Made by a program: the position numbers and the translations under genes. Positions 5,118 to 14,734 of a stretch of 64,000 bases of DNA are shown here, in pieces (within the stretch, counting starts at the first letter, position 1; each line of letters begins with the position of its first letter). The notes below the pieces were generated by a model. That model saw only the letters and a list, made by a program, of their open reading frames with translations. It searched no databases and had not been told where the DNA came from. The stretch comes from Defluviitaleaceae bacterium (GTDB lineage: Bacteria > Bacillota > Clostridia > Lachnospirales > WRAX01). The stretch lies in the NCBI GenBank assembly GCA_009784615.1, contig WRBJ01000003.1, forward strand, positions 19,005 to 83,004. Reading direction: 5' to 3'.

Positions 5118-5759
5118 ATGAAAAGATTTATGATTTTGGCGGTAATTGCCGTTTCGCTAATTGTTTTTGCGGCTTGTGGAGCTATACAAGAACGAGTGGA
5201 CGCAAATGTATACGAACGCATACACAGACAGCTTTTGTCAATGGAAAATTTTATGGCACAAGCAACAGTTACATATATTTCCAATAATAATTCTCATACT
5301 TACGAAACCATTCAGCACGCCCTAGCTACAGGTGAATACCGCATAGAAGTAACAGGGCCTATCAATGTAGCGGGCAACACAACAATTTTCGACGGCACAA
5401 CCATATCACAGTTTAACCCAAGGCTTGACGGCCGAGTTTCGCAAACCACAACTGAAGCTCCCGAACGTGTCGAAATCCTTCTAACATCCTTTGTACGTAA
5501 TTTCATACGTATGACAGAAAGCACCGTAATGGCGGCAACCGTTGAAGATGCTACAACAACGGTGTTAGAAGCCACAATACCTGGCGACCATCCGTACCTT
5601 GCCACAAGCCGCCTTTGGGTAAGCAACGACACGCTACACCCTGTGCGTATGGTTATATCCGACACAAGCGGTACAGAGCGCATTATTATCGAATATATCG
5701 CTTTCGAGTATAATGTACAATCATCACCAGAATTTTTTATTCCGCCTAGTATAGAATAG
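5118..5759 (+). CDS. Putative lipoprotein
   Basis: Signal peptide with a lipobox (LIVFAAC-G). An RBS GGAGG lies upstream. No recognised catalytic motif. Confidence 0.5.
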   Translation: MKRFMILAVIAVSLIVFAACGAIQERVDANVYERIHRQLLSMENFMAQATVTYISNNNSHTYETIQHALATGEYRIEVTGPINVAGNTTIFDGTTISQFNPRLDGRVSQTTTEAPERVEILLTSFVRNFIRMTESTVMAATVEDATTTVLEATIPGDHPYLATSRLWVSNDTLHPVRMVISDTSGTERIIIEYIAFEYNVQSSPEFFIPPSIE

Positions 5760-10776: not shown

Positions 10777-11202
10777 CTAACCCTCTACTACCAACCCCAT
10801 AGAACGAGCAGTACCAGAAATAATAGACATTGCGGCTTCAATGCTTGCAGCGTTAAGGTCAGGCATTTTAAGCTCTGCAATCTCTTTTACTTGAGCAGAT
10901 GTAACCGTGCCAACCTTTGTTTTATGCGGTTCGCCACTTGCCGTTTCAATACCTGCCGCCTTTTTCAACAAAATAGCCGCCGGTGGTGTCTTTGTGATAA
11001 AAGTAAAACTCTTATCAGCATAAACAGTAATAACTACAGGGATAATAAGCCCCACTTGTTTTGCGGTTCTGTCGTTAAATTCTTTGCAAAAGCCCATTAG
11101 GTTTACGCCGTGCTGACCAAGTGCAGGACCAACAGGTGGCGCAGGTGTTGCCTTGCCCGCAGGGATTTGAAATTTAACAATACCTGTTACTTTTTTTGCC
11201 AT
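10777..11202 (-). CDS. rplK: 50S ribosomal protein L11
   Basis: The sequence [34 protein letters not shown] is the canonical L11 N-terminus. Confidence 0.95.
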
Positions 11203-11210
11203 TTTTTCTT

Positions 11211-11248
11211 CCTCCTATTGTGGTAATGGCGGGATAATTCCCTCCCAC
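11211..11248 (-). promoter_or_regulatory. Candidate L1-binding leader hairpin overlapping the rplK RBS (copy A)
   Basis: The minus-strand RNA reads GUGGGAGGGAAUUAUCCCGCCAUUACCAC, followed by AAUAGGAGGAAG...AUG. Confidence 0.5.
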
Positions 11249-11285
11249 ATTATTAAATGCATAATGCAAAGTGCATAATGCAGAA

Positions 11286-11807
11286 TTACATACGTTCAAT
11301 TTGCAGATAATCCAGCTCAACAGGCGTTTCTCTGCCAAAAATAGACAGCGTTACAACAACCATTTGACGAGCCGAATTAACTTCGGCAATAGTACCTGTA
11401 GAATCCTCAAAAGGTCCTGTTGTAATGCGTACAACATCGCCAACGGCAAAATGCAACATTTCCGTTTCGCTCTCAATAAGCCCCATTTTGAAGATTTCTT
11501 CATCAGACAACGGAACAGGTTTAGAGCCAGGACCAACAAAACTGGTAACGCCGCGTGTATTACGCACAACATACCACGTTTCGTCGTTCATATGCATATT
11601 AACCAGCACATAACCAGGAAAAACCTTGCGGTTTACGGTTTTGCGCACGCCGTTTTTAATCTCAACCACATTTTGCGTGGGTACAGAAACCTCAACAATC
11701 TGCTCTTGCATATTGCGATTTTCTATAATTTTTTCAAGATTTGCTTTAACCTTGTTTTCATATCCAGAATAGGTATGCACAACATACCATTGCGGAACTT
11801 CAGACAT
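11286..11807 (-). CDS. nusG: Transcription termination/antitermination factor NusG
   Basis: WYVVHTYSGYENKV and a C-terminal KOW region are present, in the conserved secE-nusG-rplK position. Confidence 0.95.
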   Translation of the reverse strand: MSEVPQWYVVHTYSGYENKVKANLEKIIENRNMQEQIVEVSVPTQNVVEIKNGVRKTVNRKVFPGYVLVNMHMNDETWYVVRNTRGVTSFVGPGSKPVPLSDEEIFKMGLIESETEMLHFAVGDVVRITTGPFEDSTGTIAEVNSARQMVVVTLSIFGRETPVELDYLQIERM

Positions 11808-11824
11808 TTTTCACCTCTCGCTTC

Positions 11825-12052
11825 TTAATTAAACAAGCCAGATAGCAGGCTGTAGCCGTTGGATAATGAAAAGTCAAAAGCAAAAATAATTGCACCAACC
11901 AAGCCGCTAGTAACAATGGCGGCAATAGTCATTTTCGCAAGCTGAGCCTTCGTCGGCCAAGTAACACGTTTAAATTCGCCAACCAAACCGCTCCACCAGC
12001 CCTGCGCACCTTCCATTACACTAACATCATCTGCTTTTTTGTTATCACTCAT
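11825..12052 (-). CDS. secE: Preprotein translocase subunit SecE
   Basis: 75 aa with a single C-terminal TM helix and the motif EFKRVTWPTK. It lies between rpmG and nusG. Confidence 0.8.
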   Translation of the reverse strand: MSDNKKADDVSVMEGAQGWWSGLVGEFKRVTWPTKAQLAKMTIAAIVTSGLVGAIIFAFDFSLSNGYSLLSGLFN

Positions 12053-12064
12053 AAATACACCTCA

Positions 12065-12214
12065 TTATCTGGTTTCTCTGTGCGGAGTATGCTTGTTGCA
12101 AAACTTGCAATGCTTTTTAAACTCCATACGGTCTGGGTGGTTCTTTTTGTTCTTTTTGCTTTCATAATTGCGTTGTTTGCACTCTGTGCAAGCCAATGTA
12201 ATCTTTGCTCTCAT
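12065..12214 (-). CDS. rpmG: 50S ribosomal protein L33 (absent from the supplied ORF track)
   Basis: Manual translation of the minus strand gives [49 protein letters not shown]. This is 49 aa with the CxxC...CxxC zinc ribbon, and an RBS GAGGTG lies upstream. Confidence 0.9.
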
Positions 12215-12445: not shown

Positions 12446-12706
12446 TTACAACGCCTTCCCCACAGCCTCCCTACACTCTTCACACAAATACGTCTTATGT
12501 ACTCTTTTGATATTTGTATCATCATCACAAGCCATACACTTATCAAAATGCCTTACTAGCATAATGACATCGCCGTCCATAACAAATTCAAACTTATCAC
12601 TGGGACGTATTTGCTTTTGTTCTCTTATTACTCTTGGGATAATAATGCGCCCTAGCTCATCCACTTTTTTTACTGCACCTGTGTACTTTGCGTTTTGATT
12701 AGACAT
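12446..12706 (-). CDS. AbrB/SpoVT-family DNA-binding protein
   Basis: The N-terminal swapped-hairpin motif VDELGRIIIPRVIRE is present. The C-terminal half carries two CxxC pairs. Confidence 0.7.
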   Translation of the reverse strand: MSNQNAKYTGAVKKVDELGRIIIPRVIREQKQIRPSDKFEFVMDGDVIMLVRHFDKCMACDDDTNIKRVHKTYLCEECREAVGKAL

Positions 12707-13051
12707 ATTAATGTCCTCCTTTAATAAATTATTTTGCCTTTTGGCATTTGTTTTTTGCTATACCCATATAATACCAGTAAAAAATTGGATTGTCCACACA
12801 AATTTTTACAGTTTCGACAAATCATTCCTTTTAAACGTATTATATGACTGGATAAAATGTCAAAAAATGGTCAAAGGCGAAACCTGCCAAAATAAGGGGA
12901 AAAATAGCCCTTGCGATATTTTTTGCAATATCGCAAGGGCAAATAAAAATGGAAAGACCTGTTAATCTTCCCATTTATTAGGTATTTACTTTATTGTCTT
13001 ATTTTGAATTTTTTTACAACTTTGCCTTTTTCTTTGTATAACTTTATTAAA

Positions 13052-13195
13052 TTATTCTGTTAAACTAGGCGGCGGGATTATGATGCGTGTTGGCAATATT
13101 GGAGGGCTGGTATCAAGAGGTCCTGCATAAATGGTTGCGCTTAATGAAAATAATGCAATCATAACCAAAAATATTGCTAATAGTCTTTTTTTCAT
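13052..13195 (-). CDS. 47-aa secreted propeptide, candidate signalling peptide (absent from the ORF track)
   Basis: Manual translation gives MKKRLLAIFLVMIALFSLSATIYAGPLDTSPPILPTRIIIPPPSLTE. Its ATG overlaps the regulator's TGA stop (TTATGA). It has an N-terminal signal sequence and a Pro-rich C-terminus. Confidence 0.55.
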   Translation of the reverse strand: MKKRLLAIFLVMIALFSLSATIYAGPLDTSPPILPTRIIIPPPSLTE

Positions 13196-14541
13196 AATAC
13201 ATTACCACCTTTTTGATTATTAAACATATGCTTATAAATATCATTTATAATAGCTTTGGCTTCTAACGACTTACCTGTTCTTTTACTTTTTACACCGTAT
13301 TCTGAAAGAAGTTCGCAACAGGCTATTGCTTCGAGCCTTATACTATTATCTATAAAATATTTTATTGCCGTTTTTTCTATATATTCGACAGACATAACAT
13401 CATAACTGCTCATACGTTTGCTTACAGCTAAAATATGTGTTAGTATTTCAAAAATAATTAAATCGGGGCTTTTGCTATATTTTGCTTTAGCATTAATAAT
13501 AATCTTTTTGGCTTCTGTAAAACTTTTTAGCTCTATTAGGCAACGTGCTTTATAATACAAAGCTCCCATATAATGCTCGGAAGTTTCTTCAAGAAACATC
13601 ATTGCTTGGTCAAAATAATCTATTGATTTTTCCCAATCCTTTGAAAATCTATATAATACACCTAGGTTACGCAATACCAAGCCGATTAATGACTTATTTA
13701 ATGTTCCTTTTGCACGCAAAAGGCAATTGTTTAATAATTCTTTAGCAAAATCAAATTCACCAATTTTAATATAGTTTAATGAAAGCATAACATCTGAATT
13801 TATTCTATGAAGTGACGTTCTGCTTCCGCTGTTTGCTCTGGGTATTTTATTTAAGAACATAATAGTGCGAAATGGATTTTCAATATAATTATAGCATAAA
13901 GCAATATGATAATGGACTTTCTCTAAATCTTCAGATGAAAAATCTTCATTATCTTTCACTAAATCTAGGGTTTTTGTGAAAGATTTTATGGCTTCTGTAT
14001 ATTGTTCATTTAGGATTTTGATAAAACCAATATTGGAATGATAGTAATATAAATGTTCGACGCTCATAATTTCTTGTTTATCTTCAAGATAACTCATTTT
14101 TTCATTAGCGATGTCGGCGTAATTATCGCCAGCTTCGTAAAAAATATGTATAACTTCAAACAAACGATAAAGCATAGATAAATCGGTGTCAACAGGCTCT
14201 AAATTAACAGCAGGTGATAGCACTTTATGCATATCCTCTGCTTCTTTCGTCCTACCAACCCTAAGCAAATCACGCCAGTAATAAAGGCTTTCTCTAAAAG
14301 CAGCCCTTTCATCTTCTGTTAATGGCATACCTTCTATTTTTAAAAACTTTTTAACTCTTTCAAGCTCGTCTTGGTTATATTCTTCAGCACTGGTACTGGT
14401 TTCTATGCGTGAAATTTGAGCTTGGCTTGTTAAAGCAACCTCGGCAATTTTATCTTGGCTTATTTTCTTATCTTTACGCAAAGCCGTTATTTTTTGGGAG
14501 ATAGATAGTGTGTTGGTGTCGAATTTTTCATTAGCATACAT
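13192..14541 (-). CDS. XRE-family HTH plus TPR-repeat regulator (RNPP-like architecture)
   Basis: An N-terminal HTH (ISQKITALRKDKKISQDKIAEVALTSQAQISRIE) is followed by about 380 aa of TPR-like helical repeats. Confidence 0.7.
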   Translation of the reverse strand: MYANEKFDTNTLSISQKITALRKDKKISQDKIAEVALTSQAQISRIETSTSAEEYNQDELERVKKFLKIEGMPLTEDERAAFRESLYYWRDLLRVGRTKEAEDMHKVLSPAVNLEPVDTDLSMLYRLFEVIHIFYEAGDNYADIANEKMSYLEDKQEIMSVEHLYYYHSNIGFIKILNEQYTEAIKSFTKTLDLVKDNEDFSSEDLEKVHYHIALCYNYIENPFRTIMFLNKIPRANSGSRTSLHRINSDVMLSLNYIKIGEFDFAKELLNNCLLRAKGTLNKSLIGLVLRNLGVLYRFSKDWEKSIDYFDQAMMFLEETSEHYMGALYYKARCLIELKSFTEAKKIIINAKAKYSKSPDLIIFEILTHILAVSKRMSSYDVMSVEYIEKTAIKYFIDNSIRLEAIACCELLSEYGVKSKRTGKSLEAKAIINDIYKHMFNNQKGGNVL

Positions 14542-14734
14542 TTTGCAAAAATCACCCCATATTCACATATAATAAAGTTATTATCTATTATTATACAATA
14601 TGTGGCAGGGTTTGTCAAGGGATTTTTGAAAAAAATATTACAAATATTAAATTTTTTAAACCGCAACAAAAGGGGTTGAATTTTGCCGAAAAAAGAGTAT
14701 AATGATATTAGGTCGTTATTGAGGGAGAATATAG

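Follow-up and report, generated by a model that had tools for sequence, protein, structure and literature searches.

A probable RRNPP-type receptor and propeptide cassette with a downstream zinc-ribbon AbrB-like gene in a Defluviitaleaceae bacterium

The window analyzed here is a 64,000-nucleotide stretch from a Defluviitaleaceae bacterium, an uncultured member of the termite-gut Clostridia (assembly GCA_009784615.1, contig WRBJ01000003.1, positions 19,005 to 83,004 of the forward strand). Coordinates are window positions unless another contig or locus is named. The subject is a locus of three genes on the minus strand: a gene for a putative peptide receptor, a small open reading frame (ORF) for a putative secreted propeptide, and a gene for an AbrB-like regulator. 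An earlier note on this DNA described the first two genes and read them as a peptide-signaling pair of the RNPP type. The receptor carries an XRE-type helix-turn-helix (HTH) followed by tetratricopeptide repeats (TPRs). The features of the locus, from upstream to downstream, are as follows.

14590..14618, minus strand: receptor promoter, TTGACA-17-TATAAT, located by consensus scan; sigma-A type, score 12/12.
13192..14541, minus strand: receptor gene, encoding a 449-amino-acid, NprR/Rap-like protein with an XRE HTH and approximately 9 TPRs (ORF scan, Pfam, fold).
13205..13209, minus strand: GGTGG Shine-Dalgarno sequence of the propeptide gene, lying within the receptor 3' end at −14 to −10 of the small ORF.
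13192-13195, minus strand: ATGA overlap of the receptor stop and the propeptide start, in the context TTATGA.
13052..13195, minus strand: propeptide gene, 47 amino acids, with signal peptide MKKRLLAIFLVMIALFSLSATIYA and then GPLDTSPPILPTRIIIPPPSLTE.
12907..12976, minus strand: two tandem intrinsic-terminator hairpins, 12976-12947 and 12940-12907, located by consensus scan.
12804..12819, minus strand: TGTCGAA-N2-TGTAAAA direct repeat, Spo0A-box-like; candidate regulatory site 17 nucleotides upstream of the −35 of the AbrB-like gene.
12768..12796, minus strand: promoter of the AbrB-like gene, TGGACA-17-TATTAT with a TG extension, located by consensus scan.
12735..12746, minus strand: short palindrome TGCCAAAAGGCA within the AbrB-like gene's 5' leader, read from the sequence.
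12446..12706, minus strand: AbrB-like gene, 86 amino acids, with an AbrB/Abh/SpoVT-type N-domain and a CxxC-x14-CxxC zinc ribbon; probable output of the cassette.

The basic layout given in the earlier note is borne out. The 449-amino-acid regulator with its XRE HTH and long TPR region is recovered by the ORF scan, the Pfam TPR matches, the HTH profile, and the structural model, and the small ORF that overlaps its stop in TTATGA has 47 codons. The strong terminator placed behind the small ORF is real and is in fact double; the second hairpin has 14 pairs followed by TATTTTT. As laid out in the sequence, the receptor and propeptide genes form a two-gene operon with a strong, constitutive-looking predicted promoter at one end and the double terminator at the other. 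A spacer of 345 nucleotides separates the propeptide gene from the AbrB-like gene. The segment 12488-14700 is letter-identical in contigs from two termite-gut metagenome runs that belong to different studies, and the locus is therefore no assembly artefact.

The receptor scores above threshold with the Pfam models TPR_12, TPR_2, TPR_7, and TPR_1, and just under it with HTH_3 (E 1.2e-3). A profile of 11 N-termini of the family matches XRE-type HTH structures, namely C.BclI (3.7e-7), PezA, PlcR (1.2e-3), SinR, and ComR. The HTH is intact, and no other part of the receptor family is as well conserved. In a phmmer search of PDB sequences, the best natural protein is NprR (5dbk, 1.9e-7; 4gpk, 1.3e-6). 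The TPR region aligns with NprR over approximately 180 residues at 16-18% identity, and Rap scores nearly as well.

An AlphaFold2 model of the receptor, built from a 10-sequence alignment, has a mean predicted local distance difference test score (pLDDT) of 84.9. It shows a four-helix N-terminal domain and then approximately 10 helix pairs. When this model is searched against the PDB with Foldseek, ranks 1-36 are all NprR or Rap, in both apo and peptide-bound forms, with a probability of 1.00. NprR 5dbk is matched with an E value of 8e-9 and a target-normalised TM score of 0.68-0.77. Generic TPR proteins (OGT, LGN) rank below NprR and Rap. Sequence and model together describe a predicted cytoplasmic protein with an XRE HTH and about nine TPRs, and they support a receptor that is closest to the peptide-binding NprR/Rap quorum sensors, not to generic TPR proteins. 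The clustering proposed in the earlier note as a check thus placed the receptor with NprR and Rap and apart from non-peptide-binding TPR proteins. Because Rap proteins score almost as well as NprR, the receptor is distantly related to the NprR/Rap clade, and orthology to NprR cannot be demonstrated.

The product of the 47-codon ORF reads MKKRLLAIFLVMIALFSLSATIYAGPLDTSPPILPTRIIIPPPSLTE. Its n-region carries KKR, its hydrophobic core spans 18 residues, the cleavage-type site is IYA|G, and the tail is GPLDTSPPILPTRIIIPPPSLTE, so that the Sec-type signal peptide and Pro-rich tail described earlier are both present by a rule-of-thumb call. The nearest relatives of this propeptide end in ..PPIYPTRIIIPQPDTDITE and ..PPILPTRILLPPFEIEE. 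The tails nearest to that of the window are DPLIPPIYPTRIIIPQPDTDITE at locus L046 and GPNSGLPPILPTRILLPPFEIEE and GPNSGDPPILPTRIQLPPFEFEE at locus L049, both on metagenome contigs. The propeptides have in common the signal peptide, a pro-region that opens with [DG]PG, a core of PPI-x-P-x-(R/S)-I-x-x-P, and an acidic end. The dN/dS values (Nei-Gojobori) of 10 propeptide pairs range from 0.15 to 0.64. The two propeptide copies on contig C10 of this genome have identical signal peptides despite approximately 11 synonymous differences. These values, together with the synonymous differences on C10, place the propeptide frame under purifying selection.

Mini-ORFs were scored as signal-peptide-like ORFs of 20-90 amino acids that start within −30 to +40 nucleotides of an upstream stop. 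By this test, approximately 20 of 31 receptor homologue loci in related genomes are followed by a mini-ORF, with up to four tandem copies. As a genome-wide control, 17 of 686 long ORFs were positive; four of these are the cassettes, which leaves a background of 13 of 682 (1.9%). Conservation of the small ORF beside homologous regulators extends to several genera and to metagenome contigs, and the tail motif is conserved with it. Where copies are in tandem (two to four), they carry altered mature regions. Tandem propeptide copies are described for other RRNPPA systems (PMC11343458).

The translational coupling claimed for the pair holds in part. The ATGA overlap is present in the window and is common in the family, but it is not universal, and other members have gaps of 7-33 nucleotides and their own ribosome-binding site (RBS). 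Distant receptor clades have Cys-rich or Asp-rich tails, such as ..PPLPPCPIYGIDGRSIDPCEPCVEER and ..CCEVAPCDNEDDDNDDCDGDNDNQN (L014, L021, and L028 in genome G008; L008 and L018 in genome G012). These tails may be disulfide-bonded or metal-binding signals.

The third gene encodes an AbrB-like protein with a zinc-ribbon end. Its residues 7-53 align with the N-domains of Abh (2fy9, 6.7e-8), SpoVT (2.6e-7), and AbrB (1e-6), with matches ranging to 3e-6. TIGR01439 matches at 27.4 bits, below its cut-off of 28.3, and the homologue P0010 reaches 32 bits. The C-terminus follows the pattern C-x2-C-DDDT-x10-C-x2-C, and the four cysteines are invariant in all eight sequences. The C-terminal multimerisation domain of AbrB type is not found in this protein, which has the zinc-ribbon-like end instead. 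The structural model (pLDDT 74.7) shows an AbrB-like N-domain, a beta-hairpin, and a helix; Foldseek returns AbrB, SpoVT, and Abh, and matches the tail to zinc-ribbon ribosomal proteins.

Homologues of this gene lie on the same strand downstream of the propeptide gene or genes at three places in this genome (the window, C10, and C21), in related genomes (L007, L011, L015, L016, L019, L022, and L030), and on metagenome contigs (L034, L046, and L049). Four metagenome contexts of the AbrB-like gene were examined. All three that include upstream sequence have a receptor and propeptide(s) there, and the fourth (L048) starts too close to the gene. The gene is linked to most cassettes of the receptor clade of the window and to half of those in a second clade. 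As both clades are well supported in the receptor tree, the linkage is old. Flanking genes differ at every cassette locus. The divergent polysaccharide deacetylase gene, which the earlier note had offered as a possible target, adjoins the receptor at the window locus alone; as it is not a conserved neighbor, it is unsupported as a target and was rejected. The conserved neighbor is the downstream AbrB-like gene, which that note did not mention. The conserved unit is therefore the receptor, the propeptide(s), and the AbrB-like gene, of which the last, by gene order and by analogy, is probably the regulated target of the cassette.

The genome (G000) is 1.58 Mb in 43 contigs and 86.5% complete. 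It encodes five paralogous receptors at 37-45% identity (tblastn), and a mini-ORF starting MKKR(L/I)L follows four of the five, with two tandem copies on both C10 and C21. Receptor homologues occur in 10 of 61 related genomes, with up to eight copies each, and the arrangement of receptor and propeptide is also present on the metagenome contigs L032, L034, L046, and L049. In public data, 409 representative clusters (50% identity) score below 1e-30 and 4,728 below 1e-10; the 409 clusters are a lower bound composed of full-length-scoring relatives. Two of 10 sampled family representatives are named, both generically ("HTH regulator" and "TPR protein"). The family is visible through whole-genome HMM-style searches; a word-indexed protein search returned only six relatives, and back-translated pattern scans of genome contigs returned none. 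A tblastn search of 50,697 phage records with the receptor gave no match, and its matches on plasmids are solely remote Bacillus HTH and Rap proteins. With the housekeeping genes next to the cassette, a prophage or plasmid origin is unsupported.

Two cassettes are decayed: C33:2034-3404 (locus L003) and L035:2940-3100 have lost the propeptide gene together with the 5' part of the AbrB-like gene. The C33 receptor ORF continues in frame into the last AbrB-like codons (..CGECREAVKKTLS*), and at L035 the AbrB-like remnant ..CGECRDAV.. lies just past the receptor stop. Two head-to-head remnants of the AbrB-like C-terminus are present at C21:11650-11824, one of which is 94% identical in protein to the window copy (12446-12545). 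This repeat causes metagenome assembly graphs to branch at approximately 12488-12545 of the window. At L049, a 1367-amino-acid protein with an SBP_bac_5 (oligopeptide-binding) domain precedes the cassette (1-2873), and a short SpoIIID-like ORF follows it (5436-5585).

The promoter and leader of the window receptor (contig C3, window 14541-14635) are approximately 93% identical to C7:5860-5955 over the approximately 95 nucleotides before the ATG. The coding sequences of the two receptors share 69% nucleotide identity in the first 300 nucleotides and approximately 45% protein identity. Such a leader points to gene conversion or else to strong constraint on the control region. Three CACAAACCCCTT direct repeats lie upstream of the C7 receptor. 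Directly downstream of the window cassette, on the same strand, are rpmG-secE-nusG-rplK (10777-12214); in Bacillus subtilis, the position held here by the AbrB-like gene is that of sigH.

The spacers before the AbrB-like genes were compared for shared control elements. The six closest modules have an extended −10 promoter 77-100 nucleotides ahead of the AbrB-like ATG. The GCCAAAAGGC element of the window palindrome is also found directly before the RBS at L049. All three AbrB-linked modules of this genome have a TGTC(G/A)AA-N2-4-TGT(C/A)(G/A)AA tandem direct repeat upstream of the promoter (window 12804-12819, C10:49752, and C21:8294). The relaxed tandem-repeat pattern has five matches in the genome. 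Three are those before the AbrB-like genes; the other two are at C6:54545, before a secreted-protein gene, and at approximately 42020 of the window, inside a phage-like cluster. The AT-rich motif TATTATATG was considered as a receptor box and rejected as too common, with approximately 40 occurrences expected per genome.

TGTCGAA is the Spo0A box of B. subtilis. Spo0A was not found in this 86.5%-complete assembly, so this reading of the repeats leans on relatives: Spo0A is present in a genome of the same genus and in 15 of 20 genomes of the family. SpoVT is encoded in this genome (C5:45213-45800), and with Spo0A in the relatives, the lineage has sporulation regulators. The three paralogues may share the boxes simply by descent, and the Spo0A-box reading is best treated as a lead drawn from the sequence.

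The locus is most probably a peptide quorum-sensing cassette of the RRNPP type, belonging to the NprR/Rap structural clade and present as one of five copies in the genome; we hold this reading with good, though not full, confidence. The pairing of regulator and propeptide proposed in the earlier note is supported by the fold and sequence of the receptor, which are nearest to NprR and Rap, by the conservation of the mini-ORF, and by purifying selection on its frame. By analogy with RRNPP biology, the propeptide would be exported by Sec and cleaved after ..IYA. The 23-residue Pro-rich tail would then be trimmed outside the cell to a shorter pheromone containing the conserved core PPILPTRII. At high cell density, an Opp-type permease would carry the pheromone back into the cell; the genome has genes for three SBP_bac_5 (Opp/Dpp-type) binding proteins. 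Once seated in the TPR groove, the pheromone would alter how the receptor binds DNA.

The directly controlled promoter may be that of the AbrB-like gene in the 345-nucleotide spacer, which the conserved gene order favors at somewhat better than even chances. Receptor activity at this promoter would be raised or lowered by the peptide, and the signal would pass through the AbrB-like protein into transition-state or sporulation decisions. A broader and considerably more speculative version, which we consider rather doubtful, holds that the zinc-ribbon AbrB-like proteins are the only AbrB-type transition-state regulators of these termite-gut Clostridia, as the 86.5%-complete assembly yielded no canonical abrB. 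Each copy would answer both to its own pheromone and receptor pair and, via the tandem TGTCGAA boxes, to Spo0A. AbrB dosage would then be the point where several pherotype-specific peptide signals meet the phosphorelay, and it would time sporulation or other stationary-phase behavior in the gut community.

Several observations weigh against the cassette reading or against parts of it. No RNPP-specific Pfam or NCBIfam model matches the receptor. No RNA run was found to contain the locus. The signal peptides were called by rule of thumb. The predicted mature tail (23 amino acids, Pro-rich, with an acidic end) is longer than, and unlike, the characterized RRNPP pheromones, and the choice of active fragment is for that reason a guess. 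The AbrB-like gene is missing from six cassettes (C7, L006, L017, L023, L026, and L029). Because it has its own promoter behind two terminators, it could be independently regulated. No palindromic receptor operator is definable in the spacers, where inverted repeats differ between paralogues. The TGTCGAA repeat, the one element that recurs upstream of the AbrB-like genes, is absent from the L046 and L049 spacers, and its direct-repeat form is more in keeping with a response regulator, Spo0A for example, than with an XRE dimer.

That last point bears on a different role for the receptor, in which it acts mainly or additionally in the manner of Rap or apo-NprR. Its binding partner would then be a phosphorelay protein (Spo0F or Spo0A-like) instead of DNA, the peptide would relieve the inhibition, and Spo0A, not the receptor, would control the AbrB-like gene through the TGTCGAA boxes. 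Rap proteins are among the best structural matches, tandem TGTCGAA stands upstream of all three AbrB-like genes in the genome, and the relatives' Spo0A and the SpoVT of this genome are consistent with such a circuit. The intact XRE HTH, the best-conserved part of the family, argues instead for DNA binding, Spo0A was not found in the assembly, and two metagenome loci lack the boxes. We regard this role as unlikely. About equally unlikely is that the HTH-TPR protein is an ordinary transcription factor and the small ORF an unrelated exported product, such as a Pro-rich surface or antimicrobial peptide or a precursor resembling those of ribosomally synthesized and post-translationally modified peptides (RiPPs), with expression merely coupled. 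The tails are long (20-35 amino acids), those in distant clades (L014, L021, and L028) are Cys-rich and recall modified peptides, and RiPP loci, too, typically have their precursors in tandem. Yet the cassettes have no conserved neighbor gene for a modifying enzyme, a transporter, or immunity, and the exported products have classical Sec signal peptides, not leader peptides. The nearest folds of the receptor are peptide-bound NprR and Rap, and the order of receptor then propeptide with an ATGA overlap is an RRNPP signature.

A phage-derived or toxin-antitoxin-like element, in which an XRE repressor is paired with an AbrB/MazE-type "antitoxin" and no signaling takes place, is very improbable. 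It draws on a full-length match of the AbrB-like protein to phrog_4681, labeled "antitoxin" in PHROGs (E 8e-18), on the occurrence of proteins with AbrB and CxxC..CxxC in 54 phage records, and on a ParE gene upstream in L034. No toxin gene is conserved beside the cassette, however, and the window neighbors are the housekeeping genes rpmG-secE-nusG-rplK. The receptor itself is without a match in the phage records searched, and inspection of two phage regions (phiCp-D and Emery) showed zinc-ribbon AbrB genes that do not adjoin TPR receptors.

Work on peptide quorum sensing has concentrated on Bacillus, streptococci, and a few clostridia, and uncultured gut Clostridia have hardly been studied in this respect. 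Propeptide genes are routinely missed by annotation. If the quorum-sensing reading is correct, the family offers orthogonal-looking receptor and pheromone pairs with an unusual Pro-rich signal, as well as a clear and testable output gene. A link from cell-density signals to the AbrB/Spo0A decision circuit in termite-gut symbionts is plausible.

Among known systems, NprR-NprX of the Bacillus cereus group is the closest to the window cassette. NprR shares the XRE HTH, the approximately nine TPRs, and the length of 420-450 amino acids, and it is the best match of the receptor in both sequence and fold. Its propeptide gene also lies directly downstream on the same strand and encodes a Sec signal peptide, and its regulated gene (nprA) is adjacent. 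The differences are an identity of only 16-18%, an adjacent gene that encodes an AbrB-type regulator here and a protease there, and five paralogues per genome instead of one. The NprX pheromone is SKPDIVG, whereas the tail here is rich in proline, has PPILPTRI as its core, and is acidic at its end.

The Qsr/Qsp systems (QssA-H) were compared by description. Clostridium acetobutylicum has eight such cassettes, each with a receptor followed by a propeptide ORF of 39-50 amino acids that is mostly unannotated (PMC7376267). One of its systems (QsrG) adjoins abrB and affects sporulation (bioRxiv 2021.07.15.452460). Common to both groups are the Clostridia host and multiple paralogous HTH-TPR receptors with propeptide ORFs. 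The conserved L..P...W end of the Qsp peptides is absent here, and the AbrB partner here includes a zinc ribbon and accompanies most of the clade's cassettes instead of a single one.

In the arbitrium system (AimR-AimP-aimX), the apo receptor has been shown experimentally to activate the small gene that follows, which the peptide turns off. AloR13 of Paenibacillus similarly activates the promoter of the directly downstream spo0E-like gene and is switched off by the mature peptide (PMC7425212). Alo systems have many paralogues per genome, with orphan or degenerate copies (PMC7425212). The window family shares with these systems the same-strand order of receptor, overlapping or adjacent propeptide gene, and small regulatory gene, as well as the many paralogues and the orphan or degenerate copies. 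The output here would be an AbrB-type DNA-binding protein and not a Spo0E-like phosphatase or aimX, and the receptor fold is nearest to NprR/Rap, not AimR. Regulation of the downstream gene was established by experiment for Alo13 and AimR; here, we infer it. RRNPP systems adjacent to abrB or spo0E homologues have been noted as a recurring signature (PMC10075063; bioRxiv 2021.07.15.452460).

The phage AbrB regulators (phrog_4681; Clostridium phage phiCp-D and Brevibacillus phage Emery) share the two-part architecture and the length of the AbrB-like protein. They differ in their identity of 32-38% and in their location among early or replication genes, not behind a receptor and propeptide pair. 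Taken against these systems, the cassette is a new subfamily of the known RRNPP kind. Its long Pro-rich precursors, frequent tandem copies, and tight link to a zinc-ribbon AbrB-like gene are unusual, and they leave its category unchanged.

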